Shown piece by piece: positions 22,378-64,000 of a DNA stretch of 64,000 nt (its first letter is position 1; the number at the start of each line of letters is the position of its first letter). The position numbers and the translations under genes were made by a program. This stretch comes from Clostridia bacterium. GTDB taxonomy: Bacteria > Bacillota > Clostridia > Christensenellales > UBA1242. Location: NCBI GenBank assembly GCA_017625505.1, contig JAGAKV010000002.1, positions 3,287-67,286 of the forward strand, written 5' to 3'. Below the pieces are notes generated by a model. The model did not search any database. It worked only from the letters and a program-made list of their open reading frames with translations, and had not been told where the DNA came from.

Positions 22378-23169
22378 ATGAGCAAGAAAATAGAAAAGGA
22401 TGAAGCGCATTTTGAAAAACACATGCATGACGGGCATAGAGGAAGATTGCTTGCGACTGTAAACGAAACAGGACTATTTTATTTAAGTCAAGTGCAGATT
22501 CTTGAATTCATCCTATTCTATATTTTCCCAAGAGGGGATGTAAATCCCATCGCTCATCGCCTCCTTGCTAAGTTTAATTGTATTTCGGCTGTTATGGAAG
22601 CGCCATTTGAAGCCTTGGTCAAAGTAAAAGGCATGGGTGAAGCTTCTGCCAAGAAGTTGCAGTCACTTCTCAGTATTTTTGACATTTACAATATTGATAA
22701 AATCAATAGTAGTGCAAGTGTTGCAAATTTTGGCATCTTTCTTGACAACATTGAAATGCTTCTTCGCAATAAAAATGAAGAGTGTTGTTATATCTTTGCT
22801 GTCATGCCAAACGGCAATATCAACTATGGCCGCCTTTTTAGCAAGGGCGATGCTGGCAAGGTTGATTTCGAGGTTACTGAAATCAGCAGTTACATTTCGA
22901 CGTACAAAGTGAAATCATTGATTTTTGTACATAACCATCCGGGCGGATCATGTTTTCCATCACTTCATGATATGGAAACAAACGAACGGCTTAAACACTT
23001 CTTAAAATTTTGCGGCGTACATTTATATGATTCGATTATTATCGGAAAGAATGGAATATTTAGTTGTGAAACAAATTCCATTAGAAGAGAGTTTGGGCGC
23101 AAACCATGTAAATTAGACAACCTAACAGACTACCAAAAAGTGATGCTGCAAACGACAGAAGAAGAATAA
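22378..23169 (+). CDS. radC: RadC-family JAB/MPN domain protein
   Basis: 263 aa. N-terminal HDGHRGRL, HhH-like segment VKGMGEASAKKLQSLL, and JAMM motif HNHPGGSCFPSLHDMETN. SD ttAGGAGGaagct-ATG lies 44 nt after the giant ORF stop, with no terminator between. Confidence 0.85.
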   Translation: MSKKIEKDEAHFEKHMHDGHRGRLLATVNETGLFYLSQVQILEFILFYIFPRGDVNPIAHRLLAKFNCISAVMEAPFEALVKVKGMGEASAKKLQSLLSIFDIYNIDKINSSASVANFGIFLDNIEMLLRNKNEECCYIFAVMPNGNINYGRLFSKGDAGKVDFEVTEISSYISTYKVKSLIFVHNHPGGSCFPSLHDMETNERLKHFLKFCGVHLYDSIIIGKNGIFSCETNSIRREFGRKPCKLDNLTDYQKVMLQTTEEE

Positions 23170-39283: not shown

Positions 39284-40444
39284 ATGATGAAAAAGGTAAA
39301 AACGACAATTTATGTAGTGTTATACTCATTTCTCGTCTGCATTGCGATGTCGATGGGCGTTTTTGCTGTCTCAATGCCGCAAATTGAAACCTATACAAAC
39401 ATTTTTTATCATACAAAAACCCCAATGATTGGCAAAACAAACTTTCAAAATGCATATTTAGAGTTTAATGAAGAAGCTTCGTCAATCGGCAACCCTGTCA
39501 TAACAGAAATCTATTTTGACAGTTATACCGATGCTGACCGCGCCACCTACGCGTTTGCGCGGGGTGGGGGTAGCCTTGTAAGTACAAACGTGCTTTCTAC
39601 AATCGATGTAAGTTTGGCGCAAGATGAAAGCATCTTTGCCCACTATTACACTTATTACAACCGCGAGACGTCATCACATATCGGCGCAATGTTTGTCCTT
39701 TCAACCGAGACAATCACAATGCCGGCAGATGCTTCTGATTTTTTTAGAGAAACAAAACTTTATGATTACGATGCAACGGGAGCTCCGATTTCAGTTTTGA
39801 CAAAAATTGAATTTAATAATATTGACACTTCGCTCGTAACAACTATAAATAACATGTTTAACTATTGCCGTTCTCTTACCTCATTGGATCTTTCTATGTT
39901 TGATACACCAAAACTTACAAGCTGCTATATGGCGTTTTTTGGATGCAACCATTTAACTTCGCTCAACGTATCAGGTCTAAAAACATCACTAGTAACGGAT
40001 TTTGGATATATGTTTACACATTGCTCACGCTTACCTCAGCTTAATGTATCAAATTTTAATACATCAAGTGCAACAAACATGGGATATATGTTTCATAATT
40101 GCACTAGCTTAACATCTTTAGATCTTACGAATTTTACAACGAATAATGTAACAAATTTCAGGAATATGTTTTACAATTGTGGGAAACTTGAAATGTTAGA
40201 CCTAGCTTCTTTTAACACATCATCAGCACAAAATATGACGCAGATGTTTTATGTTGCGAGAAAAGTAACTAATATTTATGTTGGTACGGGATGGAACACG
40301 GACAATGTTGTTGAAAGTACGGATATGTTTTCTAGTTGTATCAGTTTACCAAATTATGATCCAAATTGTGTAGACAAAACCTACGCCTACGCTGGGATTG
40401 ATGAGTCGACAGGTTTGTATGGATACTTGACTTTTAAAGAATAA
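39284..40444 (+). CDS. BspA-family (DUF285-type) leucine-rich-repeat surface protein
   Basis: 386 aa. Signal ends MGVFA|VS. About 6-7 LRR units (LTSLDLSMFDT...YMFxxC) and a C-terminal cap ...LYGYLTFKE. No SD. ATG 39284 or 39287 lies 4 or 7 nt after a TAAAAT. Confidence 0.8.
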   Translation: MMKKVKTTIYVVLYSFLVCIAMSMGVFAVSMPQIETYTNIFYHTKTPMIGKTNFQNAYLEFNEEASSIGNPVITEIYFDSYTDADRATYAFARGGGSLVSTNVLSTIDVSLAQDESIFAHYYTYYNRETSSHIGAMFVLSTETITMPADASDFFRETKLYDYDATGAPISVLTKIEFNNIDTSLVTTINNMFNYCRSLTSLDLSMFDTPKLTSCYMAFFGCNHLTSLNVSGLKTSLVTDFGYMFTHCSRLPQLNVSNFNTSSATNMGYMFHNCTSLTSLDLTNFTTNNVTNFRNMFYNCGKLEMLDLASFNTSSAQNMTQMFYVARKVTNIYVGTGWNTDNVVESTDMFSSCISLPNYDPNCVDKTYAYAGIDESTGLYGYLTFKE

Positions 40445-40486: not shown

Positions 40487-40590
40487 GATGAGATTATACA
40501 TTAAAAATGTATAAAAATGCAAAATCTTTGAAAATTGATTGTAAAAAAGGAATAAAAAATGGTAATATATATTTGAAAAGGGGGTATTTT

Positions 40591-46834: not shown

Positions 46835-47542
46835 ATGGATACAACGTGGGTTATAATAATTGCTGTGATAGGAGTGGCAGTTTTGCTGTGCTTTTTGCTT
46901 TCGATTGCAAATTTCTCAGGCGAACGCTTTTTAGAAGAGTATGAACAGACAAACAAAATTGAAGTGCAAACAGAATGTACGCCGCTGCAGTTTGTCGCGG
47001 AGATGAACGAAAAACATTTTAAAGGCAGGCTGCGCGTTGGGCAAGTTGCACAAAAGGCAACAGATGCCTACAGTAAGGGCACGATCTATCTTTCCACGCA
47101 AACAATCTATACAAACTCGGTTGCATCTTTTACGATCATCGCACATGAGCTTGGTCATGCTTTGCAAGATCAAGAAGGGAAGAAGCTTAAGTCTTTAACT
47201 TTTTTAAGAAGATTTGGCCGTGGTATTGCCTTGCTTCTTGGCCCGTGCATCATCGCTGGCGGCATTTTGGCAATTCTAGAGTATTTTCTATTAGCTTTAT
47301 GCTTGTTGGGGGCAGCCATTTTAATATTTATACTTTCACTTTATGTTAAACTTAAAACCATATCAATTGAAAAAGATGCAAGTGTAAAGGCAGTTGCCAT
47401 GCTGGGGGAATATTTAACAGCAAATGAGTTAAAAATAAGTAAAAAGCTTTTGAAAGATGCAAAGCTTACTTACTGGGCGGATTTCCTGAGGATTTTCTTA
47501 TGGTGGACGGCCCTTTCAAGAAAGACAAAACTGTTTAATTAG
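46835..47542 (+). CDS. YugP-like membrane zinc metallopeptidase (Zn_peptidase_2 type), divergent copy
   Basis: 235 aa. N-terminal TM, HELGHALQ (HExxH), C-terminal TM pair. Confidence 0.75.
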   Translation: MDTTWVIIIAVIGVAVLLCFLLSIANFSGERFLEEYEQTNKIEVQTECTPLQFVAEMNEKHFKGRLRVGQVAQKATDAYSKGTIYLSTQTIYTNSVASFTIIAHELGHALQDQEGKKLKSLTFLRRFGRGIALLLGPCIIAGGILAILEYFLLALCLLGAAILIFILSLYVKLKTISIEKDASVKAVAMLGEYLTANELKISKKLLKDAKLTYWADFLRIFLWWTALSRKTKLFN

Positions 47543-47551
47543 GAGGAAATT

Positions 47552-48259
47552 ATGTTGTTTTTAGGTTATTATATTTGCGGCGGGATTGTGCTTGTGACAA
47601 TCCTTATTTCACTGTTTGCACAGGTTAAAGTGCATAGTGCGTACAATAAATATCAACAAGAGGCGTCTCCGCTTGACATGACGGGTGTTCAGCTTGCTCA
47701 TAAACTGGCGCAAGATCACCATATGGCTCTTACAATAAGAAGCACGTCCGGACACCTGTCTGATCATTTTGATCCAAGGGATAACAGCATCAACATCTCA
47801 CACGACAATGTCAATTCAAAGTCCATTGCAGCTCACGCGATAATCGCTCATGAGTTTGGTCACGCGTTGCAACATGAGGAAAACTATATGCCTTACAAAG
47901 TGAGGCAGGCAACAGTAAAGATTGCAAGCTTTGTGTCAAAATTGCTCATTCCTATGATTATTCTTGCCATATTGCTTGAAATTTTTGTGCTGATGGGGGT
48001 TGGGAATATAATTCTTTACGTTTATGTCGGTATTTATGCTGTTTCATTTATTGTGAGTCTGGTGACCCTTCCAGTTGAATTTAATGCGTCAAAAAGGGCC
48101 AAAAAGGCTTTGGCAGAAATGGGTGTTTCGGGTGAAAATGCAAATGGTGTGGCTGACGTGTTAAACGCCGCTGCAATGACTTACGTTGCTGCAATGCTTG
48201 TTAATTTTGCATATCTCCTGCGAATTCTTTCGCTATTACGCTTTTTCTCGAGAGATTAA
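47552..48259 (+). CDS. YugP-like membrane zinc metallopeptidase
   Basis: 235 aa. LFAQVKVHSAYNKY...GHLSDHFDPR...AHEFGHALQH, close to the Bacillus YugP pattern. SD ttAGGAGGaaatt-ATG. Confidence 0.85.
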   Translation: MLFLGYYICGGIVLVTILISLFAQVKVHSAYNKYQQEASPLDMTGVQLAHKLAQDHHMALTIRSTSGHLSDHFDPRDNSINISHDNVNSKSIAAHAIIAHEFGHALQHEENYMPYKVRQATVKIASFVSKLLIPMIILAILLEIFVLMGVGNIILYVYVGIYAVSFIVSLVTLPVEFNASKRAKKALAEMGVSGENANGVADVLNAAAMTYVAAMLVNFAYLLRILSLLRFFSRD

Positions 48260-50820: not shown

Positions 50821-51159
50821 TTAGCCAATCTCAAGATTGCCGATTGTGGCAATTGGCTGCTCTTTATATGCTACTCCATTCCTTTTTGCGACCTCTCGAT
50901 CAAGCGCCTCTTTTTTTCTGCGCAAAACTAGAGATGTTGGTATTGCTGCTAACAGTATTGTGGGAAGGCTAAAAAATGCTGTGGCAACGACTGCGTTTGG
51001 AATCTCTTTTGTAAATAATGATGCAAAAGGTATTCCAAAGATTGTGACAAATCCAAGAATGTTGCTGCCCAGTGCAGTTAGCACGCTTATTTTTGTCGCA
51101 AGGGAATATGCTTTTTGTTTTTTAAGTAGTTTATCCATAGGTAGGTCTTTGTGTGCCAT
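50821..51159 (-). CDS. small two-TM hairpin membrane protein, paralog 5 of 5
   Basis: 112 aa from the ATG at 51159 (SD aAAGGAGaaaac). MAHKDLPMDKLLKKQKAYSLATK followed by 2 TM segments. Confidence 0.6.
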   Translation of the reverse strand: MAHKDLPMDKLLKKQKAYSLATKISVLTALGSNILGFVTIFGIPFASLFTKEIPNAVVATAFFSLPTILLAAIPTSLVLRRKKEALDREVAKRNGVAYKEQPIATIGNLEIG

Positions 51160-51169
51160 GTTTTCTCCT

Positions 51170-51790
51170 TTAGTGCTGGATTGGCTCAATTTCCATTGCT
51201 TTGGTTAAGGTGTCTGTGCTTATAGACCTTTTGGCTCTTCGTTTTCGTTCTTCTTTAAGCTGTGCTAATGTACTTTGCTTTTTGCCGTGAAGTAGCATTG
51301 CGCCAAGGCAAGAAACGGCTTCAACACCTACTAATGCGGTGCAGACTGAACCTGTGTTTGTTCCGATTTCAAGAGATCTTTCAACTGCTTTGTTGTGTTT
51401 TTCGAAAGCTGCAATTTGTTCTTCTGTGCCGTATTGCTTGATATAATCTTCCCTTGAAATGCCTTTAGCGTTCTTTTTCTGTTCGATATATTCTTCAGGG
51501 GAGATGTCTTTGCTGTAAAGTTGATTTTCCAGCGATTGAAGTTTTTCGTTTAATGTTTCCTCATACACTTCGTTGTACGAAGTTTCTTCAATGACCTGAT
51601 TGCGTTTTTCTCCATGAATAAATGATGAAAACATGCAACCAAACATAAAAATTAGTGTTGCGGCGCCAGTGATGACTATAGGAAGTACAAGCTTGTTTGT
51701 TTTGATTATTCCGCTGTGCTTCTTTTCTAAACAGTTGATTTTTTCCTCTAATTGTTCGTCACTTAGGACTGTAATTTTTTCTTTTTTCAT
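51170..51790 (-). CDS. two-TM membrane protein with a ~95-aa loop, paralog 4 of 5
   Basis: 206 aa with SD acAAGGAGaaaac-ATG. TM1 LVLPIVITGAATLIFMFGCMFSSFI, a charged helical loop, then TM2 GSVCTALVGVEAVSCLGAMLL. Confidence 0.65.
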   Translation of the reverse strand: MKKEKITVLSDEQLEEKINCLEKKHSGIIKTNKLVLPIVITGAATLIFMFGCMFSSFIHGEKRNQVIEETSYNEVYEETLNEKLQSLENQLYSKDISPEEYIEQKKNAKGISREDYIKQYGTEEQIAAFEKHNKAVERSLEIGTNTGSVCTALVGVEAVSCLGAMLLHGKKQSTLAQLKEERKRRAKRSISTDTLTKAMEIEPIQH

Positions 51791-51803
51791 GTTTTCTCCT
51801 TGT

Positions 51804-52118
51804 CTAAATTGAGCAGTTTATATCTTCGCCTTGATGTGTATGTTCATCGGTTTCGTGAGAAGATATTTTCTTTTCAAGCGCTTCGCCGATGATCGTAGAG
51901 GTGATTCCCAAAATTCCAACGCCCATACCAATTCCTGCAGTCGTCAGCACTGTTGCTGCGTCGGCGTTTGCCACAACATCAAGACCAATTGCTGCCATAA
52001 TTCCTCCAAGTCCAAGAGCGTTGAGGATAAGAGAAGTTATATTATTTGCAAGCATATATGTTTTTTTATTTTTTAGTAGTCCGTTGTTATTGTCAATTTT
52101 ATAATTCTTTTTTGTCAT
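51804..52118 (-). CDS. small two-TM hairpin membrane protein, paralog 3 of 5
   Basis: 104 aa from the ATG at 52118 (SD aAAGGAtaaagcaa). This start avoids overlap with the upstream gene. ...GLLKNKKTYMLANNITS followed by 2 Gly-rich TM segments. Confidence 0.6.
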   Translation of the reverse strand: MTKKNYKIDNNNGLLKNKKTYMLANNITSLILNALGLGGIMAAIGLDVVANADAATVLTTAGIGMGVGILGITSTIIGEALEKKISSHETDEHTHQGEDINCSI

Positions 52119-52131
52119 TTGCTTTATCCTT

Positions 52132-52485
52132 TTACATTCCGATGTCAAAGTTGTATCCATTGTCTTGAATTGTGTTGTCCTGTTTTTGATTGTTTTCTTC
52201 ATCCATAATAATCATGTTTTTGTTTGTAAGGTTTTTCAGTTGTTGCTGATTTTTCTCTTTAGCCTTGCGTGCCGCGATATGTCCAAGTAAAGATGTTGCA
52301 GAGATAATTAAGCCGGCACACATAACATTTTTTGATTTTGTAGCAGCTCCTATAAGTGTAACTGAGCTTCCAATGATTTTTCCTATTAATGCAAGGTTTG
52401 TGTTTAATTTGCAAAGATTTTGTTTTTTTAGTAGTGATTGTAAATATTGTTTATCTATAATAATTTTTTCGTTGTTTTTGTTCAT
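52132..52485 (-). CDS. small two-TM hairpin membrane protein, paralog 2 of 5
   Basis: 117 aa with SD taAGGAGagagaa-ATG. ...LQSLLKKQNLCKLNTNLALIGK followed by 2 TM segments. Confidence 0.6.
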   Translation of the reverse strand: MNKNNEKIIIDKQYLQSLLKKQNLCKLNTNLALIGKIIGSSVTLIGAATKSKNVMCAGLIISATSLLGHIAARKAKEKNQQQLKNLTNKNMIIMDEENNQKQDNTIQDNGYNFDIGM

Positions 52486-52499
52486 TTCTCTCTCCTTAT

Positions 52500-52967
52500 T
52501 TAAATTAATTCATTTAATATGTCGTCTTTGTTTTCGCACTTACTTATCTTTATCATCTTGCCGCAGCCATAGGCTATGCCGCATGTTCCAAGCAGTGCTG
52601 CGTTTGCTGCTGCAGTTATGCTTGCTTTTTTGTGTGCTTGATATTTTTGATAAGTCGTACTTGGCGTGTTTTTCATGTAATCGTTCATGTCATAATTTTT
52701 GATAGCGGATTTTTTTGCTTCTTTTTCGCTCTCGTTTAGGCTAGAGTTTTCAATTTCGGTGATTTGAGCATTTTTGTAAGCTTCGTTAAAGTCTGTGTAG
52801 CCGGCATCAGCAGCAATATTGTTTGCGGCGGCGCTGGTAAAGAGACTGGCAACAAGCAGTGCAGCCTCTACAACGACGGTTACAAGCGCAAGCTTGAGAA
52901 ATGTTGACGTTTTTGATTTTATTTTGCCTTTTTGCAGTAAATTATCGTAATTTTCTTGCGAATTCAT
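52500..52967 (-). CDS. two-TM membrane protein with a ~65-aa loop, paralog 1 of 5
   Basis: 155 aa with SD taAGGAGaaaatt-ATG. ...NLLQKGKIKSKTSTFLKLALVTVVVEAALLV, a loop, then TM2 ITAAANAALLGTCGIAYGCG. Confidence 0.65.
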   Translation of the reverse strand: MNSQENYDNLLQKGKIKSKTSTFLKLALVTVVVEAALLVASLFTSAAANNIAADAGYTDFNEAYKNAQITEIENSSLNESEKEAKKSAIKNYDMNDYMKNTPSTTYQKYQAHKKASITAAANAALLGTCGIAYGCGKMIKISKCENKDDILNELI

Positions 52968-53087: not shown

Positions 53088-54668
53088 TTATTTTCCGTAT
53101 TTTTCAATATATTCTTGATAAGAGCCTGTGAAGTCGATTACTTTATCTTCGTCGATGATGTCGATGATTCGATCGGCAACTGTTTCGATGATTTCTTGGT
53201 CGTGTGTTGCAAACAGCATGTTTCCACGGAAGTTTTGCATGCCCTTGTTGAGCGCGGTGATTGATTCAAGGTCGAGGTGGTTTGTTGGCTCATCAAGGAT
53301 TACAAGGTTGCCTTGTTCAAGCATCATTTTTGCAAGCATACATCTTACTCTTTCGCCGCCGGAGAGAACGTTTGCTGGTTTAAGGTTTTCTTCGCCGGTA
53401 AACAACATTCTGCCAAGCCAGCTTCTGATATAGGTTTCATTTTGGTCTTTTGAGTATTGTCTCAGCCAATCAACAATTGAGTCGGTTTTTCCTTCAAAGT
53501 ATTCATTATTGTTTTGTGGCAGGTGGGTTGTCTTGATTGTCTTTCCGATGAAGACTTGACCGTGGTCTGGTTTTTCAATTCCCATAATAATATTAAATAA
53601 TGTAGTTAAAATTTGACTATTTTTTGCAAAAAATGCAACTTTTTGCCCTTTTTCGATGTTGAAAGAAAGGTTTTTAAACATTCCAGTTTTGGTTAGATGA
53701 TCAACTTTAAGCACCTCTTTGCCAATTTCTTGAGTGTATTCAAAATTGATGTAAGGGTATTTTCTAGAAGAAGGCTTAATGTCCTCAAGGGTGAGTTTTT
53801 CAAGTTCCTTCTTTCTAGAGGTTGCTTGTTTTGATTTTGAAGCGTTGGCAGAGAATCGGGCAATAAATTCTTTAAGTTCTTTAGCGCGTTGCTCAGCTTT
53901 TTTGTTCTGGTCTTTCATTTGTCTTAAAATAAGTTGGCTTGATTCGTACCAGAAATCATAGTTTCCGATAAACATATTGATTTTTCCATAATCTACATCG
54001 CAGATATGTGTGCACACTTTATTGAGGAAGTGTCTGTTGTGAGATACGATGATGACAATGTTTTCAAATTCAAGAAGGTGTTCTTCCAGCCATCTTGTGG
54101 TTTTGAAGTCGAGGTTGTTTGTAGGTTCGTCAAGCACGAGAATGTCAGGGTTTCCAAAGAGGGCTTGCGCAAGAAGGATTTTTACCTTAATCTTTGCGTC
54201 AAGTGTGCCCATGATTTGGTCGTACATCTCTTCAGTTATCCCCATGCTTTGAAGAAGTGCTTTTGCTTCGCTTTCAGCTTCCCAGCCGCCAAGTTCGGCA
54301 AACTCAGTTTCAAGTTCGCCCGCACGAATTCCGTCTTCTTCTGTAAAGTCGGGCTTCATGTACAATGCATCCTTTTCTTTTTGAACTTCCATGAGGCGCT
54401 TATGGCCAAGAAGTACGGTGTTTAAAACTGTTTCGTTGTCGTACGCATTTTGGTTTTGCGCAAGAACGCTCATACGTTCGCCTGGAGTGATAGAAATTTC
54501 TCCAGTGTTTGGTTCAATTTCTCCTGTGAGGATTTTTAGGAATGTTGATTTTCCTGCTCCGTTTGCACCGATTATTCCATAGCAATTGCCTTTTGTGAAT
54601 TTTAAATTTACTTCTTTATAAAGCACTCGTCCGCCGAATGCTAGTGAAATATTGCTTGCCTGAATCAT
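53088..54668 (-). CDS. ABC-F family ATPase (YbiT-like, no membrane domain)
   Basis: 526 aa. Two ABC cassettes (GANGAGKST; LSGGERVR) joined by a charged linker. The N-terminus aligns with the YbiT-type pattern (GHKRLMEVQKEKDALY...EDG). Confidence 0.85.
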   Translation of the reverse strand: MIQASNISLAFGGRVLYKEVNLKFTKGNCYGIIGANGAGKSTFLKILTGEIEPNTGEISITPGERMSVLAQNQNAYDNETVLNTVLLGHKRLMEVQKEKDALYMKPDFTEEDGIRAGELETEFAELGGWEAESEAKALLQSMGITEEMYDQIMGTLDAKIKVKILLAQALFGNPDILVLDEPTNNLDFKTTRWLEEHLLEFENIVIIVSHNRHFLNKVCTHICDVDYGKINMFIGNYDFWYESSQLILRQMKDQNKKAEQRAKELKEFIARFSANASKSKQATSRKKELEKLTLEDIKPSSRKYPYINFEYTQEIGKEVLKVDHLTKTGMFKNLSFNIEKGQKVAFFAKNSQILTTLFNIIMGIEKPDHGQVFIGKTIKTTHLPQNNNEYFEGKTDSIVDWLRQYSKDQNETYIRSWLGRMLFTGEENLKPANVLSGGERVRCMLAKMMLEQGNLVILDEPTNHLDLESITALNKGMQNFRGNMLFATHDQEIIETVADRIIDIIDEDKVIDFTGSYQEYIEKYGK

Positions 54669-54702
54669 TTATTTTTTTTCTCCTTAATTTATTTTTGAAA
54701 AC

Positions 54703-54731
54703 ATTATATATCATAAAAAATGTTTTGTCAA
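54703..54731 (-). promoter_or_regulatory. consensus promoter of the ABC-F gene
   Basis: Minus strand: TTGACA (54731-26), 17-nt spacer, TATAAT (54708-03). The leader is short, with no attenuator hairpin visible. Confidence 0.6.
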
Positions 54732-54866
54732 GCAAAAGGCGTTAGGCGGCGAAAGAAGGGGCGTTGATTTGGTGTTTTAAAAAAAACAAAAATTAAATTA
54801 GGAATAAAATAAAAATAAAACAAGAATCAAATAAAAAAGAAAATAGAAAGAAAATAAAAATAATTA

Positions 54867-54975
54867 AAAATTAATCTAAAAATAATAAAAAAATCGAAAT
54901 TTTTGCTATTTTTTCTAAAAATAATATAAAATTTGAATAATTATAATTTTTAATTGTTTTAAAATTAATCTAAAA
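54867..54975 (+). repeat. 15-bp exact direct repeat within an extremely AT-rich island
   Basis: AAAATTAATCTAAAA occurs at 54867-54881 and again at 54961-54975. Confidence 0.5.
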
Positions 54976-55063
54976 CCTTTTTTCTTTAGGCAAATATTGA
55001 AAAATAAATATTTTTGTTATTTATAATTATAATAATATTATTCTGACAAATACCGAAATTTAT

Positions 55064-55092
55064 TTGCATTTTTCGCGTAAAAAGATTAAAAT
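55064..55092 (+). promoter_or_regulatory. possible promoter of giant ORF 2
   Basis: TTGCAT (55064-69), 17-nt spacer, TAAAAT (55087-92). The AT-rich context offers many alternatives. Confidence 0.3.
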
Positions 55093-55129
55093 AAAATTGT
55101 ATTAAAAATTAGAAGTGAGGTAGCTTTTA

Positions 55130-58100
55130 ATGGCAAAGAAAATAAAGAAAGAGAAAGTTGATAAAAAAGAACTTAAAACCTCAAGAGGTTTGCGTCCTTG
55201 GATGACAATACTTGGTGTTGTTGGCGGAGTATCTCTTGTCTGCGGCGCAACTGTTTTGGGAGTTTTTTTGACTGGAGGCTTTGAAGAGAAGGTTGTCAGT
55301 CCAGAAGATATTTCGTTTGTTTATGACGAAAGTCTTTTTAATGACGCTTACTCTCAACTTGAAATTTCTGATTCGTCTCAAGAGGGAGAATTCGAACTTG
55401 TAATCAATACAACCACAGAAGAAGTTACGCAAAAAAAGGTGGAACTTTCTTTTGATGATGCTCTTGAAGAAAATGTAGTCACAAGTATCCATGGCTTTGT
55501 TTCCAACTCTATTATTCAGGTGCCTCAGTTTGTAAATATTGGAGAGCCTTTTACAGTAAAACTTCTTAATGAAATGATTGAAGTTGAGGAGGAAAATGGC
55601 GAAGGCGAAATTGTTTCTAAAAAGATTGACTGGATTAAGGGTGGCATTTCAACGCTTTTTGCTCAGAGCGAAAATATCGATGTACCAGTGACCAGTTTAA
55701 AGATTGCTGTAGACACGCCTGTATATTCAACTAGAACGGTTGTGTACGATTCTACAGGAAAACAAATCCAAGTGGATGAAGAAGGTATTAAAGTTATTGC
55801 GGGAGAGGCGTTTACAGTTGATACCAAATTCTTTCCTGCAAAAAGTGAATATATGTATGCAGATGATAGTGCGGTAAACGCTATCGACGAAGATGCAAGA
55901 AGAAAGAAACACTCTTTCTTTGAAGCAAAACTAGCAACCGACCAGCCAAACGCGATTGTACCTGAGTATGACGGGAAATACAAATTGCATTTCGTGGCAG
56001 CAAATAAAACGTTTGAAAAACCAATTGCAATCAATGCTTACACATTTAGATATGCTGATGTTGAACTGGAGTTTACAAACAATCATCCAACCAAGTCAAC
56101 ACCGGAGGATGTAGCAGGCATCACCGAACTTGAGTTTTATCAGCTTGCAATTACAACTCTTGCAAGTGACATGCTGGGCGCGTATAAACAAGAGGGTGAA
56201 ATCATTATAAGTGAAGCGACGATTGGACAATTCAGAATAAACAATCAAAGCAACGTTATGCTTACTCGCGGAAAATCAACAAGGCTTTATCTTGATTTCA
56301 ATGAAGATGATCCAGCGCTTAACTACCTTTCTGCGTCAGTAAGAGCAAACACGGTAGAGCCAAGATATCTTGACAATATGCTTAAGCAAATTGGTATCAG
56401 ATTTACCAACAGTGCAGGTAAAGATGTTGCAATTGCAAGTGACGATCAATTGATCAGCCTTAGTGATTGTCAAGAAGTAAAATATGATTTAAATGGTGAT
56501 GGTGCGCTTGAAACTTTCTATTTACCAAACGCTAGCGGAGCAAACGTGCGTAAAGGATACTGGAATATTACAGCCCTTCCAACCGACTCTAAAGAGACGC
56601 AAGATGATGAAAACATTACAATGGAAATAGTTCTCTTCACTTCAATAACACAAGTAGAGGGAGAAGGTGGAACTTACTATCAAGGCAAGATTTACCAGCA
56701 ATTTGCAACCGGAAACGATGGTGAGGAAATTAAGAATGATGTAGTTATCAGCGGCAAATCATTAGTGCTGACAGATAAGCAAGATTACAATGTCTCTTGG
56801 AATGATGCATCAAGCTTAACAATTAATCTTGACTATCAAAATAGCAAATTTATTCCACAAACAATCAATTTAAGCAAGTTTATTACAGTGCCAAAAGATA
56901 AAGATGTTGTTTTCTTTGTTGACTTTAAAGATGTAACAGCAGATGCGGAAGGCGGGATTAACAGAGTTCTCGGCGAGACTTCTTATTCAGATTTGGTAGA
57001 ATATCTTGAACCAAATGGCGTTCCTGTTAAACTTTATGTATTGACTGAACAAACTATTACGCTTTATGATACTGGAAGTTTTGATATTTATTTTGCAACG
57101 ATTAATTCAAAAGCTGAACCTGGACAACTTGGTTATATAGAGCTTTGGTGCAACGACGCAAAACAAGTTGTTTGTCAAAAATCTCTCTATCAAGAGTCTG
57201 TGAGCGGTGCGGTAATCATGCTTCCAGAAGCAGCGTTTGATAGTGAACAATATTATACCTATGTTGGCGTTGAAAACGAATTAAAAACAGTGTTTACGGT
57301 TGACTTTATAGTAAACCCTGATTCATATCCAGCATTCCAACAGGCGATTGAAAACGGTGAACAGTTTGATATTAAACTTTATGACTCTCTTGGAAATGAT
57401 ATCAGCCACTATTTTACACTTCATACAGATCTGGCTGCAGGCATTACAACAAACCCAAGCCTTATTGATCTTGCAGCAGCTCTTGAGGAAGGTGAGGTGT
57501 TAGAAGGCGATTACAGATATGCATACAGAGCAATCTATAAAATAAAAGACAATATTACAATCAATTCCGATCTTGTTATCGATAAGGGTGAGGGTGAACA
57601 AACCTATACAAAAACTGCCCTTGTCGCTCGCGCAGAACTGCTTTTTGGTAAAAAGGACGAAGAAGCTGCTATTGTGTGGGGAAATAAAGGAGAAGCGACA
57701 TTCGGCTTCAGTAAATATCTTTATATTTACAAGCCTGTGACAGCATCTATTGTGATAGCAGATGAGTATGGCGGAGCAACTGGTGGAATCGTTACAGAAG
57801 ATGTTATTAATGTTAATCAAACATTATTAGCTGCTGGTGGATTGTCTACTTCTATTACATACACATGCTACATGCTTGACGGGGACGGGACTTATACTGA
57901 AGAAAATGCAACACTAGAAGAATTTATTGAAGATCTTACATATGGAATTGTGCTTACCGACCAGCATGGAGACACTCAAAGTTTGCAAGGTAAGTGGCAA
58001 TTTGTGACTAACAATAGTGACATTATCAGCATCAGCGATGATAAGCAAAGCTTTGAATTTAAAAATGCATCAAATGAAAAGGCAAACATTTGGATTGAAG

Positions 58101-61100
58101 CTCAAGATTCTATTTCAAACGAACCAGCAATCAAAAACGAAGCTGGCAATACAAAGATTTATACTCTCAACCTTACAACAACTGGCGTTGGAGAAATTTC
58201 AGTTGACGGCGGAGCGCGAACTAATGTTGTCACGTCCGCAGAAATTACGAGAAAAGGGAGCATAGACACGTCACAAATTGAAATACCAAGCATTATAAAA
58301 TATTATATTGTTAACAATGGCGTCGAAAGCGTTTACAATCCGACAGAGATCTCTTATGCATTAAGTGCGATTACAACTACGTCTATGACGGATGAACAAA
58401 AGAAAGATTTGTTTGGATATTACAAAGAAAGTGAAGATGCAGTAGAGCCAATTGAAGGATGGCTTGAGATTCAAGATCAAAACGAACAAGTAGTCAGAGC
58501 AATCATAGATTATGATGGAAATGTTGTTGGCTTTACTGGTGATATTACAAATCTTAAAACCATAACAATTAAGAAAAACTTTTCGGCGCCTGCAACGATT
58601 GTAATCAATATTTCAGCAATTGGAATTAATACAACCCTTACAATAAACATTTCTGCAGAAAACAGTATTGAGGGCGCTACTGAATACTCAGTTTTCGCAG
58701 GCAAGGCTTACGCTAGCGATGTGATTTCCAATACAATCGTTCTTAGCGAAGCAAGTTTGTTGGGAAGCTATACTGGCACACATTATGTAGTTGCATCTGA
58801 GCAGGGCGGGTATAGGCTTGATAGCGCTGAAGAAAACGCTTTATCTGCCGTAGGACACCTTGACAATGGTGTGTTAACTTTCAATGATTTTTGGACAGAA
58901 GAGGAAAAAACATTTACAATTCGTTTTGCCCCAGAGGGTGATGGTTATTATGCGGTATGGAAAGATATTACTTTCACCGTACAGCGAAACATTAAGATTG
59001 TGGCAAGCTCAGACAATTTAGCAGGAAACCTTATTCCTGTCGAGGCTGCCGCCGAAATGACATATTTCATTGTTTATTCAGGCGGTAAACCAACTGTATC
59101 AACATTTGTTAGTGTAACGCGCATTGAAGGTGATGATAAAACCCTTCCAGAAATTGCGTATGCAACAACAGCACTTACAAACTCATATTTTACTATCAAT
59201 AAAGCTGGAGAGATAGAGAGAAACGCAAATATAGAAATAATATTTGGCACAGAAACAATTGTGCAAGGAGAGCAGTCAAGAATTTCTATCAGCATTGGCT
59301 CGACAATTCTTGCAACAGTGCAGCTTCAAATAAAATTACATGACGATATTTATAGCAATGTTGCCTCTTCAATTTCAAAGAAAATTAGTGTTGATCAAGG
59401 GCAAGGCGCTGCACAAGTGGAAGAAACTGTTAACGCCAAGGTGCAGGAGATTAATGGCAAAAAATATGTTGTTGTTGATGCAACGAAAGGAAGTACAAGT
59501 TGGGAGTGGAACGGAAGTATAACAGGGGGAACAATAGCCCTTCTTGGCCAACATAAAGGGTATCGTTCAGAGCTTTATGAAATTCAAGCTGCTCAGACAG
59601 AGCAAGGACCAGGCGATATTTCGTTTAATACAAAAGGTGTATTATATGGATATAACAGCAACAACTACCTGATTATTCACACAGAAGGAAGCACTCAATC
59701 AAATAAACACAGTGAGTGGATTTATATTCCTGCGATAATTTCTGCAGTAGGAGAAACGCCAGTGTTATATAACAAGAAGGGCGACTCTATAGCGTCTCAA
59801 GACGGAAGAAATGGAGCTATATCAAAATATTCTGAAAGATATCTTGATGTTGCTATGATGAGCCCAGACGATCTTATTGCAAATGGAATTTATGATGAGT
59901 TTATAGCAGGTGAATCTTATACAATTTATAATGCCAAAGGCACCGACGGCCATGGCCTTTGGTTTGGCAATGGAATGAGCATCTCAATTGATGTTTATGA
60001 TGGCGCTGGAGCAACAAACAGCGAAATTACAAATAAGATTCGAAAGCAGATTAATTATGTAAACACCACAGGCGAGAAAACAGTTAAAATCGACTTGTAC
60101 GATCTGGCAGACAATATTGGCGGGGACTATTACATTGCCCTTAAATATACTGTTATTCTCAGTTCAACTGGTCACAGACAAGATTTTTACTATCTTATGA
60201 AAATCATTCCTAATGTGCATGTAGAAGATCCTGTTTATCCATACGGAGAAAACACAAGATACGAAAATTTACAAGAATCAAATGGACAAATTGATCTCAA
60301 CGCGACGTTTGACTCAACAACTCTTGCAACCGGTCAAAATAGATTTAATGTAAGTTATATTCTTTCATATGACCAGGCAAAAACATTCACAATTAAGAAA
60401 ATCAACAAGGATTCTATCATCAGATTTACATGGAAAGATCAAACAAAAGAATACATTGCAACAGAAAATAAAGATAATGAAGATAATGAAGTGTTGACGC
60501 TAACTTTAAAGGATTATTTCCCTGACATCCAAAAGGATGATAAGTTGTACATGATTCTTCAAAACTCTGAAATTGAAGTGACATATGCAGAGACTGAAAA
60601 CGCAAAAGTTTATACACCAAGTGCGTATATTGATACGGTTTCAAATGTGACTGTCAATGACAACTACGTTTATACTGACAAAGCAGAGTGGAGCAGTTTC
60701 ATTTCAATTGAAATTGTAAATGGTGTTATGACATATCAAGCACACATTTCCGATCCAATCAGCTTTACAATCAAACGTACTTATGTAAATAGTCAAGACA
60801 CAAGCATTGAACAAATTGTGAGCGGATCGCATGAATATGTGTTCATGGTCAACGATAGAACAAAAGATTACTCAATCAGATTTATTAAGCAGGTGGATGA
60901 TCCTGCAACGTCAGAAGTAGTAGAGGCTGTTACAACAACGCTTCCAGATACTTTTGGAGTAACTCAGTATACAATTTCATTCAGAAATGGTGACGTGGAT
61001 GATTCAGCCCAACAAAAAGTTCAAATTGGACTTGTGGAAAATGGCACGGAGGACGGCTATACATATACAGGCCTTAAGCTGTTCTTGATTGAAAATGCTG

Positions 61101-64000
61101 TTGCAGGCAACTCTTCAAGCGGAACAGAAGTGTTTAATGTTGTACATGTTGAATGTTCAAACATCGAGGGTGATGTAGCTGCATTTAAAGGAAAAACGAT
61201 AAGCGTTTTTGATCCAGCGGACGAGAGCGGAGCGTTTACTCTCAATCTACCAAAGTACATCAGTCAAGACACAAAGCTTACATTCACAATCTTTACCACT
61301 TACGGACATATCGCAACACTTATTTTTGACCTCAAGGCAAATGCCAGCGTGACATTTGTTGGCGAAAAATCATCGTGGAAAGCAGGTAACTCTTATCTGT
61401 GGGGTAGCCAAGATGGTTCTAGTGGAATATTCGATCTGCAAGTCACGGGAGATGCAAAAAAATTTGCGTCGATTCAGCTCGATTGCGATGTGATTGATCT
61501 CAACGAGGAAAGCAAAGCAAAATATGCTGAAATGAAAAAATATATCAGCATTGACAGCGGAAATAATATTGTCATCAAAGACACAACAAAAACTCAGACA
61601 TTTAAAGATGTACCATTCATAATTACCTTCACGGATGGCGATATATATAAATTTGTAACTGATTTTACAATTGAGGCAAACGTTATTAAGACGGCAGCGG
61701 CTTATGAAAATGAAAAAGAAGTTGTTGCTGGGAATGATCTTGTTGTTGAAGTTGCCAAATTATTCGATGAAGGTGGTGCACCAACATCCGGCTTTAGCGT
61801 GACTGCTGAAAGTGCTCAAGATGTTCTTGCTAGCGGTAATGTTGCTGTGACTGGTGATGATGACAAATACAGCATTACAATAAAGACAATTCATGTTGCC
61901 TCCAAGGTTACAGCAACAATCCAGTTGACATTCATGTTGAATTCGGGCGAGGAGGTTGTAGTATCTTATATTGTGACCATTGCGCCAAGTGTAAAACTTG
62001 AGACAACTTATCCAAATCCTACTGGCGAGGGTTCAATCGGCAAAGAGTTTGTTAAACATGAATTTACCACAGACAATATCAATGTCTTCTTAAATGGCAC
62101 GGCATTGTTTGCGGACAACACTCGTATTGTGGAATTGCTAGCTGATGCGCCTACTGCTGATGGCGAAACAGAGGTTACTTACAGTGACAAAGGCACTATA
62201 TCAATAATGACAGTTACACTTGCAAAAGCATCAAACGCAAATATTTATATTGTTGGTGATGAGACTGATAGTGTTAAGGAAAATGTTAATATTACAGGCA
62301 AGGCTATTAGATTTGAACGCGGCACAAATGCGGCAGAAGACTCAATTATTGTACTTTCAGTAAAACTCAACAATGTTGTTGCAACATATACAATCTACAT
62401 TTCAGACGAACTTTGGACAACTGAAGGAAATTATGTTACAAACAACGTGACAACAGAATATTATCCAAAAGAAAAGATTTATGGCACGCATAGGGTGACC
62501 GCTACGGAATCTTATGATATAAGTATTCTTGATATTGTTGATGCGGAAAAACTGAAAAATGGTAGTATCTTAAAATGCACGCTCTCACTTCCAGATGGTG
62601 CTAGCGGATCAACTGAAGGCTTTAAAGTTCAGTATAATAACAAAAGTATTTTAAACAAAGAGTTTAAGTATGATAGTGATAACAATATAATTTCTGTGTC
62701 TGATGTTGCAGTTGATACAATTATCACTATTGAAAACACACCAGGGCAAACTACAACAGAAAAAATTTATATAGATAAAACAGAAATTACAGACATCTTT
62801 GCAGATGATCGTATGGCCAGTGTCAGCGTAAGCTCTACAGCAGAAGCTGGAGAATATTATGTGGTATATCTTAAAAATGGTACGGATAGTCGTAAAAAAT
62901 CTTGGACGGGGATGAATAAAATTCAAGAACCATTGAACATTCCAGAATATGCAAGATTGTCTCAAAATGAAGAAATTATTATTAAAGTAACAGGCAATGC
63001 GGCGGTTATAGGCTATGATGGGGAATATATAGTTAATAATTTTGATGAAGAAGCTCAAATGGTGACAACAAGCAAAACGGGAGTTCTGACTTTTAATAGC
63101 ACAGGTACTATTTCAATTATTCGAAAGGGAAATGTGACCATTGAATATATAGCGAAATCCTATGGTGAATATTACGCTTCATATCCTCTCTATATTAAAG
63201 CTGATGACATCGGCAAAAATCTTACTGTTGATCTTGGCAAGAGTATGTCTGGCTGCAGATATTATGCAACATACTCAACTGAAGAAATTGAGAAAGCAAA
63301 AATTTCTCTTGCTACTGATAGGTTACTTAAAGTAAAAGATGCAGCAGGGCAGCCTACAGATATGTCGCTTGATGATTTGGACAACATGACACAGGCAAAT
63401 ATCTTTGTTGGAGAGCCAGTTGCAACAAACAGAATTCAACTCTACTATGGTTCAAGCAGCGAAAAATATGCTGTTGCAAGCCATAAGTATGAGCCGGATA
63501 ATGATAATGTTGGAAATATCAGCAACGTTGGAACAATCGAAGAAGTTGCCGGAATTTTAGTTGACTTTAAACTGACAGGCGCTGATGAAACGCTCCTTTC
63601 ATTTAAATATCACTACAAGCCAATGATTGATATTGACATGAAAGATTCAGTTGAGGCAAGTGATGCGGCAAACTTTGATGTTGTCTTAGAAGCCGGAAAA
63701 GAATATACAAGCCTGTCGCAGGAACTGGGACTTGTTCATCCTTCAACAGGGTTGCACCTTTCTCCAGTTGATGGCGATATGGTGTCTCTTGCACTTACGG
63801 TAGTGGATGACGCAACAGCGACCACTCTTGAATTTTATGACAGCTACAAAGGCAAGTGTGGTCCAACGGAAACCCCATTCTTTAAAAGCACGACAGATGA
63901 TGGACAAGAATATCTTTCTTATTCTCAGGTGACAAACTCAAGTGGCAAAACATATGATTTCTATTTGCTGCCACATGGAGCGAAGAATGACGGAGACTTT
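55130..64000 (+). CDS. second giant surface protein, N-terminal 2,957 codons (3' end beyond the right edge), signal-anchor TM
   Basis: Not in the ORF track. I read the frame codon by codon from ATG 55130 (SD agaaGTGAGGtagctttta) to 64000 and found no stop. Begins MAKKIKKEKVDKKELKTSRGLRPWMTILGVVGGVSLVCGATVLGVFLTGGFEEK, then a beta-rich, Thr/Asn/Ile-rich body. All minus-strand ORFs in this span are antisense shadows. Confidence 0.88.
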   Translation, partial: MAKKIKKEKVDKKELKTSRGLRPWMTILGVVGGVSLVCGATVLGVFLTGGFEEKVVSPEDISFVYDESLFNDAYSQLEISDSSQEGEFELVINTTTEEVTQKKVELSFDDALEENVVTSIHGFVSNSIIQVPQFVNIGEPFTVKLLNEMIEVEEENGEGEIVSKKIDWIKGGISTLFAQSENIDVPVTSLKIAVDTPVYSTRTVVYDSTGKQIQVDEEGIKVIAGEAFTVDTKFFPAKSEYMYADDSAVNAIDEDARRKKHSFFEAKLATDQPNAIVPEYDGKYKLHFVAANKTFEKPIAINAYTFRYADVELEFTNNHPTKSTPEDVAGITELEFYQLAITTLASDMLGAYKQEGEIIISEATIGQFRINNQSNVMLTRGKSTRLYLDFNEDDPALNYLSASVRANTVEPRYLDNMLKQIGIRFTNSAGKDVAIASDDQLISLSDCQEVKYDLNGDGALETFYLPNASGANVRKGYWNITALPTDSKETQDDENITMEIVLFTSITQVEGEGGTYYQGKIYQQFATGNDGEEIKNDVVISGKSLVLTDKQDYNVSWNDASSLTINLDYQNSKFIPQTINLSKFITVPKDKDVVFFVDFKDVTADAEGGINRVLGETSYSDLVEYLEPNGVPVKLYVLTEQTITLYDTGSFDIYFATINSKAEPGQLGYIELWCNDAKQVVCQKSLYQESVSGAVIMLPEAAFDSEQYYTYVGVENELKTVFTVDFIVNPDSYPAFQQAIENGEQFDIKLYDSLGNDISHYFTLHTDLAAGITTNPSLIDLAAALEEGEVLEGDYRYAYRAIYKIKDNITINSDLVIDKGEGEQTYTKTALVARAELLFGKKDEEAAIVWGNKGEATFGFSKYLYIYKPVTASIVIADEYGGATGGIVTEDVINVNQTLLAAGGLSTSITYTCYMLDGDGTYTEENATLEEFIEDLTYGIVLTDQHGDTQSLQGKWQFVTNNSDIISISDDKQSFEFKNASNEKANIWIEAQDSISNEPAIKNEAGNTKIYTLNLTTTGVGEISVDGGARTNVVTSAEITRKGSIDTSQIEIPSIIKYYIVNNGVESVYNPTEISYALSAITTTSMTDEQKKDLFGYYKESEDAVEPIEGWLEIQDQNEQVVRAIIDYDGNVVGFTGDITNLKTITIKKNFSAPATIVINISAIGINTTLTINISAENSIEGATEYSVFAGKAYASDVISNTIVLSEASLLGSYTGTHYVVASEQGGYRLDSAEENALSAVGHLDNGVLTFNDFWTEEEKTFTIRFAPEGDGYYAVWKDITFTVQRNIKIVASSDNLAGNLIPVEAAAEMTYFIVYSGGKPTVSTFVSVTRIEGDDKTLPEIAYATTALTNSYFTINKAGEIERNANIEIIFGTETIVQGEQSRISISIGSTILATVQLQIKLHDDIYSNVASSISKKISVDQGQGAAQVEETVNAKVQEINGKKYVVVDATKGSTSWEWNGSITGGTIALLGQHKGYRSELYEIQAAQTEQGPGDISFNTKGVLYGYNSNNYLIIHTEGSTQSNKHSEWIYIPAIISAVGETPVLYNKKGDSIASQDGRNGAISKYSERYLDVAMMSPDDLIANGIYDEFIAGESYTIYNAKGTDGHGLWFGNGMSISIDVYDGAGATNSEITNKIRKQINYVNTTGEKTVKIDLYDLADNIGGDYYIALKYTVILSSTGHRQDFYYLMKIIPNVHVEDPVYPYGENTRYENLQESNGQIDLNATFDSTTLATGQNRFNVSYILSYDQAKTFTIKKINKDSIIRFTWKDQTKEYIATENKDNEDNEVLTLTLKDYFPDIQKDDKLYMILQNSEIEVTYAETENAKVYTPSAYIDTVSNVTVNDNYVYTDKAEWSSFISIEIVNGVMTYQAHISDPISFTIKRTYVNSQDTSIEQIVSGSHEYVFMVNDRTKDYSIRFIKQVDDPATSEVVEAVTTTLPDTFGVTQYTISFRNGDVDDSAQQKVQIGLVENGTEDGYTYTGLKLFLIENAVAGNSSSGTEVFNVVHVECSNIEGDVAAFKGKTISVFDPADESGAFTLNLPKYISQDTKLTFTIFTTYGHIATLIFDLKANASVTFVGEKSSWKAGNSYLWGSQDGSSGIFDLQVTGDAKKFASIQLDCDVIDLNEESKAKYAEMKKYISIDSGNNIVIKDTTKTQTFKDVPFIITFTDGDIYKFVTDFTIEANVIKTAAAYENEKEVVAGNDLVVEVAKLFDEGGAPTSGFSVTAESAQDVLASGNVAVTGDDDKYSITIKTIHVASKVTATIQLTFMLNSGEEVVVSYIVTIAPSVKLETTYPNPTGEGSIGKEFVKHEFTTDNINVFLNGTALFADNTRIVELLADAPTADGETEVTYSDKGTISIMTVTLAKASNANIYIVGDETDSVKENVNITGKAIRFERGTNAAEDSIIVLSVKLNNVVATYTIYISDELWTTEGNYVTNNVTTEYYPKEKIYGTHRVTATESYDISILDIVDAEKLKNGSILKCTLSLPDGASGSTEGFKVQYNNKSILNKEFKYDSDNNIISVSDVAVDTIITIENTPGQTTTEKIYIDKTEITDIFADDRMASVSVSSTAEAGEYYVVYLKNGTDSRKKSWTGMNKIQEPLNIPEYARLSQNEEIIIKVTGNAAVIGYDGEYIVNNFDEEAQMVTTSKTGVLTFNSTGTISIIRKGNVTIEYIAKSYGEYYASYPLYIKADDIGKNLTVDLGKSMSGCRYYATYSTEEIEKAKISLATDRLLKVKDAAGQPTDMSLDDLDNMTQANIFVGEPVATNRIQLYYGSSSEKYAVASHKYEPDNDNVGNISNVGTIEEVAGILVDFKLTGADETLLSFKYHYKPMIDIDMKDSVEASDAANFDVVLEAGKEYTSLSQELGLVHPSTGLHLSPVDGDMVSLALTVVDDATATTLEFYDSYKGKCGPTETPFFKSTTDDGQEYLSYSQVTNSSGKTYDFYLLPHGAKNDGDF

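Follow-up and report, generated by a model that had tools for sequence, protein, structure and literature searches.

An undescribed family of giant, predicted membrane-anchored beta-sandwich proteins encoded upstream of cardiolipin synthase in uncultured gut Clostridia

Very long surface proteins have been described from several groups of bacteria. Fibrillar adhesin-like (FA-like) proteins are recognised by their extracellular location, a multi-domain stalk that is commonly tandem-repeated, an adhesive domain that is usually terminal, and a surface anchor, and transmembrane helices occur in about 20% of those without known anchors (PMC8286594). Far larger giants, of more than 30,000 aa and with many transmembrane regions and SecA_DEAD domains, have been reported from the Omnitrophota (West-Roberts et al. 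2023, bioRxiv 10.1101/2023.11.21.568195). The subject of the present study is a giant gene that starts at position 55130 of a 64,000-nt stretch of DNA (the window) from a Clostridia bacterium of the Christensenellales (GenBank assembly GCA_017625505.1, contig JAGAKV010000002.1, positions 3,287 to 67,286) and runs off its end. Like the Omnitrophota giants, its product is very large, metagenome-derived, mostly unannotated and in need of structure prediction in tiles, but with 3,661 aa, one helix and no SecA_DEAD domain it is unrelated to them. Among giant Gram-positive surface proteins, Ebh of Staphylococcus aureus is helical (FIVAR/GA repeats), highly repetitive and C-terminally anchored. The protein described here would share with Ebh and its like the giant size, the membrane anchoring and the span across the envelope, and a role in envelope integrity is plausible for it too, whereas it is predicted to be beta-rich instead of helical, non-repetitive, and anchored at the N-terminus instead of the C-terminus; the searches made, none of them aimed at Ebh, brought up no relation to it in sequence or fold. 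The open frame belongs to a real giant gene, and the protein family is undescribed: databases list its members only as 'hypothetical', and no description of it was found in the literature on Christensenellales covering giant proteins, surface proteins, adhesins and S-layers.

An earlier note on the window, made from the sequence alone, had claimed that reading frame 2 is open from the ATG at 55130 to the window edge and that this open reading frame (ORF) had been missed by the accompanying ORF list. Both observations are correct. Translation of 55130-64000 on the plus strand gives 2,957 codons with zero stops (3 x 2,957 gives the full span of 8,871 nt), as compared with 142 and 319 stops in the remaining forward frames and 89, 137 and 237 in the reverse frames; at a GC content of ~38%, the random expectation of such a stop-free run is ~1e-88. 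The frame is missing from the list because the listing tool leaves out ORFs that run off the window end. Since the closest in-frame stop on the 5' side is a TAG at 55121-55123, ATG 55130 is the earliest possible start, and a Shine-Dalgarno motif, GAGG, can be read from the sequence at 55117-55120 (plus strand), 9 nt 5' of the ATG. An antisense ORF of 103 aa at 55181-55492 (minus strand), within the 5' end of the giant gene, most likely arose by chance. The earlier note had also called for the contig to be extended to the stop codon, which a near-identical strain made possible. A search of a large protein collection recovered a protein of 3,661 aa differing from the window product solely by A459V, and a 30.3-kb contig from an ENA metagenome assembly (L001) carries the complete gene at 10001-20986, equivalent to window positions 55130-66115. 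As L001 shows 1 nt mismatch over 18,871 shared bases, it represents effectively the same strain. The window thus holds codons 1-2957 of 3661 (55130-64000, plus strand), that is, the first 81% of a gene cut by the window edge. The full product has a mass of 401.6 kDa, an ectodomain with an isoelectric point of 4.39 and 14 Cys in the entire protein; the part encoded in the window is rich in T (9.2%), I (8.6%), S (7.7%), V (7.7%), E (7.5%), D (7.2%) and N (6.0%).

Conservation across a family, which the earlier note had not addressed, shows the gene to be more than a long open frame. Homologues were found 47 times in the protein collection, and 49 loci were recovered among the one-genome-per-species GTDB representatives, all of them in metagenome-assembled genomes of uncultured Clostridia, Eubacteriales or 'Christensenella sp.'; the samples came from human, mouse, rabbit and deer hosts and from the rumen. 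The family is narrow, since an exhaustive phmmer search with aa 1-1150 against 1.84 billion cluster representatives returned just 109 matches, which are either full-length proteins of ~3,100-4,400 aa or shorter entries. That the short entries with the N-terminal module might be a separate, smaller architecture was considered and rejected; the one checked, P0107, is cut by its contig end and has the same synteny. In all, 85 full-length homologues can be aligned end to end; an alignment of 45 full-length members shows invariant Gly, Pro and aromatic residues along the entire length, and 79 of 84 members measure 3,100-3,900 aa (median 3,550). No Pfam domain is detected in members, except that a few end in Flg_new or LRR_5; homologue P0031 carries seven LRR_5 stretches, and P0025 has Flg_new plus LRR_5 toward its C-terminal end. 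Four more distant loci (L043, L047, L048 and L050) have larger genes at the corresponding position next to ABC-F and cls, with products of 4,366-5,059 aa. Three of these products (L043, L047, L048) have only the N-terminal module of ~230 aa in common with the window protein, and the fourth (L050) still aligns across ~62% of it. Pfam gave no match for the L043 giant or for the C-terminal 3,051 aa of L047, and the body of the most distant giants appears either to be a replacement or to be so diverged that it can no longer be recognised.

An assembly or annotation artefact, or a decaying pseudogene, was also considered, and the earlier note had named frameshifts or stops as a possible outcome of re-sequencing. 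None came to light: the gene is identical bar 1 nt in the second assembly. One of the 49 loci, L020 (588-6772), is the only one in which the giant ORF is interrupted near the N-terminus, for which a stop, a frameshift or a fault of the assembly may be responsible. Against this single case stand 39 independent assemblies, each at species level, with intact frames of 9-15 kb, the 46 distinct full-length sequences that the protein database adds to them, the collinear alignment with its invariant aromatic, Gly and Pro residues throughout, and a ratio of nonsynonymous to synonymous substitution rates (dN/dS) below 1. Because of this conservation, we take an artefact or pseudogene to be excluded for all practical purposes.

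The best conserved part of the protein is its N-terminus. As the earlier note had described, a Lys-rich stub is followed by a single transmembrane helix: the presumed cytoplasmic stub covers aa 1-23 (55130-55198, plus strand; family consensus MKKxKKEK...KKW), and the sole hydrophobic segment of the whole protein covers aa 24-52 (55199-55285, plus strand), with an uninterrupted hydrophobic stretch of 24-28 residues that AlphaFold2 models as a helix at 24-47 and that we interpret as a signal anchor. The N-terminus reads MAKKIKKEKVDKKELKTSRGLRP, then WMTILGVVGGVSLVCGATVLGVFLTGGF. Exactly one hydrophobic segment, in N-terminal position, is present in 79 of 85 members. Four glycines of the helix (G39, G44, G49 and G50) are invariant, and conservation of T41, L43 and L47 reaches at least 90%; no other 50-aa block of the family is as well conserved as residues 1-50, and the following ~200 residues rank next. 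The adjoining membrane-proximal module (aa 53-250; 55286-55879, plus strand), predicted to consist of beta-sandwich domains and marked by the motifs GGFxEKVxxPExIxFxYD and IAVDVPVY, is the sole part recognisable in the most distant giants (L043, L045, L047-L049).

The earlier note had read this N-terminus as a signal anchor rather than a lipoprotein signal. The second half of that statement holds, as no lipobox is found at the end of the N-terminal segment: Cys38, in the context S-L-V-C, has none and is not conserved across the family, and the only match to the lipobox pattern [LVI][ASTVI][GAS]C in the full-length protein is at residue 3504. The first half, anchor as opposed to cleaved signal peptide, is in our view the likelier of two readings. 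Sortase-type anchoring finds no sequence correlate, as a C-terminal LPxTG with hydrophobic segment and basic tail is lacking; LPxTG is absent from the whole of P0001 and from the C-terminal 80 residues of each of 85 members, none of which has a C-terminal hydrophobic segment. If the N-terminal segment were instead a long, conserved signal peptide cleaved near G49-G50/F51, no anchor would be left and the product would be a secreted or loosely wall-associated exoprotein. Small residues at -1 and -3 (T-G-G|F) and the invariant or nearly invariant GGF would suit such cleavage, and Gram-positive signal peptides can be long and conserved, as those of the YSIRK type are. On the other hand, a hydrophobic stretch of 24-28 residues suffices to span the membrane, no other anchoring device was found in the protein so that a 400-kDa product would be free, and the spacing of G39, G44 and G49 resembles a helix-packing motif. 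We therefore consider release from the membrane unlikely. For either a passive anchor or a signal peptide, such conservation of the helix, in a protein that elsewhere diverges very fast, is unusual, and it hints at helix-helix packing or at processing at GG|F.

The earlier note had predicted a beta-rich product and had proposed profile searches and structure prediction in tiles. The profile searches were run and gave no family match. Pfam, with three tiles of the window ORF and the C-terminal 704 aa, returned only sub-threshold noise (POLO_box, RHS_repeat, SWM_repeat), which we dismissed; NCBIfam on the full protein gave no match at E <= 1, and a profile HMM (hidden Markov model) from 22 full-length homologues gave nothing at E <= 1 against all PDB sequences. 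Structure prediction was more informative, with confident models for aa 1-1150 and 2830-3656 that are nearly all strand, in agreement with the prediction. For aa 1-1150, AlphaFold2 with 45 family sequences gave a mean predicted local distance difference test (pLDDT) of 74.7, with the helix at 24-47 followed by beta-strand domains and short helices only. The model of aa 2701-3661 reaches a pLDDT of ~88 over aa 2830-3656, is all-beta, and has a predicted template-modelling score (pTM) of 0.67 for the whole 961 residues. Alignment of the model tiles to full-length homologues scattered the tile ends, so that aa 1100-1150 of the first model and 2701-2829 of the second are unreliable, and the same scattering led us to discard A5, a C-terminal tile of 1,200 aa. 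Between the modelled ends, in aa 1151-2829, the family-averaged hydrophobic periodicity is beta-like and about equal in strength to that of the ends. Judging from these models, both modelled thirds are strings of Ig-like beta-sandwich domains that all differ in sequence; strand groups and dips in pLDDT put the number at about 10 domains per 1,000 residues, or ~35 in total.

The ectodomain in the window beyond the membrane-proximal module (aa 251-2957; 55880-64000, plus strand) would accordingly be a chain of unique beta-sandwich domains. Neither self-BLASTP nor Tandem Repeats Finder detected internal repeats. The only related pair, found by hhalign with family tiles (probability 92%, E 7e-7), consists of a cryptic copy with the motif FYYxxKIxPxVxV at aa 1660-1732 (60107-60325, plus strand) and its match at aa 2951-3023, which runs from window position 63980 past the edge. 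Two lineage-specific insertions, aa 2451-2550 and 2601-2700 (62480-63229, plus strand), flank a conserved stretch, show gap fractions of 0.75-0.93, and are missing in ~90% of homologues in alignment A1.

Foldseek searches of both models against the PDB returned, in the top-50 lists, solely multi-domain Ig-like or cadherin-like chains: nucleoporin gp210, the S-layer proteins Sap, EA1, SbsB and SbsC of Bacillus and the Deinococcus HPI layer, as well as classical cadherins, protocadherins, GhpA, repeats of RTX adhesins, and proteins of the complement and alpha2-macroglobulin type. The matches have E-values from 1e-14 to 1e-6 but template-modelling scores (TM-scores) of only 0.07-0.3. Against the viral BFVD, only generic phage Ig-like proteins were found, and no enzyme, toxin, pore or lipid-groove fold is among the Foldseek matches of the two modelled parts. 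Bacterial alpha2-macroglobulins such as E. coli ECAM (4rtd; Foldseek E ~5e-7) resemble the giant as predicted here, with an N-terminal membrane tether and a chain of MG-like beta-sandwiches, but the giant has neither the CxEQ thioester motif nor an A2M Pfam match, and its modelled parts contain no helical thioester domain. A pattern search for the RTX and cadherin motifs GGxGxD and DxNDN was negative, as was Pfam for Cadherin and HemolysinCabind.

In the window, which is a low-GC (35-43%) chromosome segment of Bacillota type, the giant gene follows a divergently transcribed gene for an ABC-F ATPase (53088-54668, minus strand). The very AT-rich spacer of 460 nt between them (54669-55129) is the presumed site of divergent promoters and contains degenerate A-rich tandem repeats with periods of 11 and 23 (54779-54894, Tandem Repeats Finder); promoter-like sites in the equivalent stretch of L001 (9574-9963) are consensus matches only, and an Rfam scan of window 54000-64000 gave no match. 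Downstream, in L001, the cardiolipin synthase gene cls, whose product (Cls) has PLDc_N and two PLDc_2 domains, starts 29 nt after the giant stop with its own ribosome-binding site, AAAGGAGGG. Because of this short gap, the lack of a terminator-like hairpin between the two genes in L001, and the position after cls of the region's strongest hairpin (11-bp stem), the giant gene and cls look like a single two-gene transcription unit. In 36 further species, the spacing between the giant stop and the first possible start of the cls frame has an overlap of 4 nt as its lower and a few hundred nt as its upper limit. Wherever a locus is of sufficient length, the gene order is, essentially without exception, penicillin-binding protein (PBP), two Zn-peptidase genes, glycyl-tRNA synthetase (GlyRS), ABC-F (minus strand), giant and cls, and in most loci a U32 peptidase gene lies further downstream of cls. 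As this sample had been selected through the giant itself, a separate check was made with four Cls homologues of 71-79% identity picked without reference to it; in 5/5 Cls-selected loci a giant gene lies directly upstream of cls, four of the products having 3,462-3,672 aa and one being cut by its contig end.

The neighbourhood of cls raises the question of lipid transport, given that AsmA/TamB/YhdP-like lipid-transport bridges, too, have a helix at the N-terminus and a long beta-rich body behind it. We consider such a bridge very improbable, and on the fold of the modelled parts we rejected it: these are discrete beta-sandwich domains with no continuous beta-taco groove, the two top-50 PDB lists contain no lipid-transfer description, and no AsmA or DUF490 Pfam match was obtained. 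Moreover, the very fast evolution of the sequence is atypical of a housekeeping transporter, and the window encodes a PASTA PBP of Gram-positive type, with nothing in it that points to an outer membrane.

This rapid evolution stands out against the neighbouring genes. Across the same loci, identity to the window-strain proteins is 77-92% for ABC-F, 56-86% for GlyRS, 55-74% for Cls and 61-74% for the PBP, but only 24-31% for the giant. In a pair of close strains (L051/L052) the C-terminal third of the giant has a dN/dS of 0.50 and an amino-acid identity of 93.8%, whereas identity is 100% for cls and dN/dS is 0.08-0.24 for the three genes that follow it; these values come from one strain pair and from a homologue of the giant in strains other than that of the window. 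The operon arrangement, the family-wide conservation and the fast evolution all go beyond what the earlier note had reported.

Taken together, the reading we consider probable, if by no great distance from even chances, is that the giant is a non-repetitive, N-terminally anchored fibrillar surface protein of adhesin-like or coat-like type. Surface exposure is suggested by the acidic, Cys-poor composition, by the rapid evolution relative to neighbouring genes, and by the C-terminal LRR (leucine-rich repeat) or Listeria-Bacteroides modules of some homologues. The helix would act as an uncleaved signal anchor with its N-terminus inside and its C-terminus outside, and the ectodomain of ~3,600 residues would be exported by Sec. 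The conserved first ~200 residues of the ectodomain would adjoin the membrane or lie within the wall, and the remainder would project as a fibre of ~35 domains, on the order of 100 nm if fully extended, with its fast-evolving distal parts meeting the environment, in which host mucus or glycans, antibody, phages and other microbes are candidate partners. The BspA-type LRR or Listeria-Bacteroides repeats that some lineages have at the C-terminal end may serve as binding modules. No new principle would be involved, since giant bacterial surface proteins made of Ig-like domains are well known.

In several respects the giant resembles the FA-like proteins of Monzon et al. 2021 (PMC8286594): it is a long, single-chain, multidomain protein that evolves fast, it is predicted to be extracellular and anchored to the surface, its modelled parts are a string of beta-sandwiches such as a stalk might have, and some homologues of the giant bear recognised binding modules (LRR_5, Flg_new) at one end. 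The anchor would be a non-canonical one, the predicted N-terminal membrane helix, and the stub with its single helix predicts an exported ectodomain that is acidic and low in Cys. As to the stalk, the modelled chain of beta-sandwiches differs from the usual one in that its domains are not tandem sequence repeats (the one cryptic pair apart), and none of the Pfam families known from stalks, adhesive domains or anchors gives a match. The polarity is reversed with respect to the usual layout in Firmicutes, where the adhesive part is N-terminal and the LPxTG C-terminal, and the giant occupies a fixed locus at a stable length, in contrast to the patchy or copy-number-variable occurrence of FA-like proteins. 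Some of these features weigh against an adhesin. No adhesive or binding domain was detected in the giant by Pfam or NCBIfam or by Foldseek of the C-terminal model, nor is there a distinctive fold that might be one. The confident models span just aa 1-1150 and 2830-3656. Adhesin stalks are typically repetitive, variable in copy number and patchy in occurrence, whereas the giant is non-repetitive, stable in length and present at the same locus in every genome examined, a pattern that a structural role in the envelope would fit at least as well. Finally, a passive anchor does not explain why the helix is the best-conserved block, and cleavage may take place after the invariant GG at aa 49-50.

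This leads to the alternative of a core envelope scaffold or S-layer-like coat, in which the protein would be an indispensable structural component of this clade's envelope and its unique domains would join side by side into a lattice or sheath, possibly in functional coupling with Cls. It would account for the constant locus of the gene, seen in each of the 49 species-level genomes recovered and in 5/5 of the Cls-selected loci, for the stable length in 79 of 84 members, for domains that are orthologous one-for-one without repeats, and for the high conservation of the membrane helix. In addition, the pTM of the C-terminal model suggests a defined packing of the last 830 residues, and the best bacterial Foldseek matches are the S-layer proteins Sap, EA1, SbsB, SbsC and HPI. 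The S-layer proteins of Bacillales (Sap 9g93/6hhu, EA1 8opr, SbsB 4aq1, SbsC 5ftx) likewise consist of Ig-like beta-sandwich domains that differ from one another, have an acidic composition with few Cys, and vary greatly in sequence from species to species. However, the giant is 4-7 times larger and by prediction anchored by a membrane helix, and TM-scores to these proteins are 0.07-0.18; SLH, CWB2 or similar wall-binding modules gave no Pfam or NCBIfam match at E <= 1. S-layer proteins usually have 40-200 kDa, a range far exceeded by the ~400 kDa of the giant. With TM-scores as low as 0.07-0.2, the Foldseek matches are to generic Ig chains and do not indicate a shared assembly, and since the whole locus is collinear across the clade, the constant presence of the gene may partly reflect general synteny. 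For these reasons we regard a scaffold as the main alternative to the fibrillar surface protein, but as an unlikely one.

A bolder proposal, to which we assign only a small chance, is that the giant is an obligatory envelope organiser acting together with Cls. The proposal draws on the invariant pairing with cls, on the unusually conserved glycine-rich helix and on the non-repetitive architecture of stable length. The helix and polybasic stub would dock into membrane domains that Cls enriches in cardiolipin, or would contact Cls directly, thereby fixing the export site of the ~100-nm Ig chain, and the chain could serve as a polar holdfast, a cell-cell tether or an S-layer substitute. If true, this would constitute a previously unrecognised coupling, in monoderm gut bacteria, of lipid-domain synthesis to the placement of a surface structure on the megadalton scale.

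The window contains another giant ORF (2792-22333, plus strand; 6,513 aa), with a lipoprotein-type signal, ..ASILSAC|GQQ, and followed by a RadC-like gene (22378-23169). The earlier note had stated that the visible part of the product encoded from 55130 lacks the GGLVG-type rungs of this first giant and that the two are not simple paralogs, and the sequences agree: the first giant has 17 GG[LIV][VIA]G motifs, in clusters at aa 1331-1359, 3015-3343, 3977-4230 and 4905-4975, the second has none, and BLASTP finds no similarity between the two at E <= 0.01. The predicted signal types differ as well, lipoprotein for the first giant versus signal anchor for the second, and Pfam gave no match for the first. 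Three plus-strand genes for DUF285/BspA-type LRR proteins of 719, 619 and 386 aa (26227-28386, 31641-33500 and 39284-40444) are interleaved with the housekeeping genes uvrB, uvrA and metG. If the two giants are counted as well, genes for putative surface proteins are unusually frequent in these 64 kb. Then comes a gene for a 921-aa protein (40507-43272, plus strand) that is recognisable only in its N-terminal part, where aa 40-205 form a CvpA (Colicin V production) membrane domain; Pfam matches nothing in the other ~700 aa. Further genes of the window include mraW, the division PBP with PASTA domains and the glyS-type GlyRS gene.

Within the collinear block around the giant gene, some variation was noted. 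The tandem Zn_peptidase_2 (PF04298) paralogues at 46835-47542 and 47552-48259 (plus strand) match the model unequally, the far more divergent copy with an E-value of 3e-24 and the other with 9e-64; both copies are present in most related loci, and the most distant ones (L043, L047, L048) show one. The interval between GlyRS and ABC-F contains a run of small ORFs (50821-52967, minus strand; ~104-206 aa) for which Pfam gave no match, and as the length of this interval differs between species, it represents a variable islet in an otherwise collinear region. Directly downstream of cls, L051 and L052 carry a Ku-LigD (non-homologous end joining) cassette (5579-8626) that is absent from the locus of the window strain.

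The present analysis provides the length, the architecture and the evolutionary profile of a ~400-kDa protein of a widespread clade of uncultured gut Clostridia. The features that set it apart from adhesins, namely the non-repeating domains, the fixed length, the conserved helix and the operon with cls, give rise to testable hypotheses. The giant is probably one of the main structures that these bacteria show to their host, to phages and to their neighbours, and as such it would be a natural target for strain typing, metaproteomic detection and studies of colonisation.

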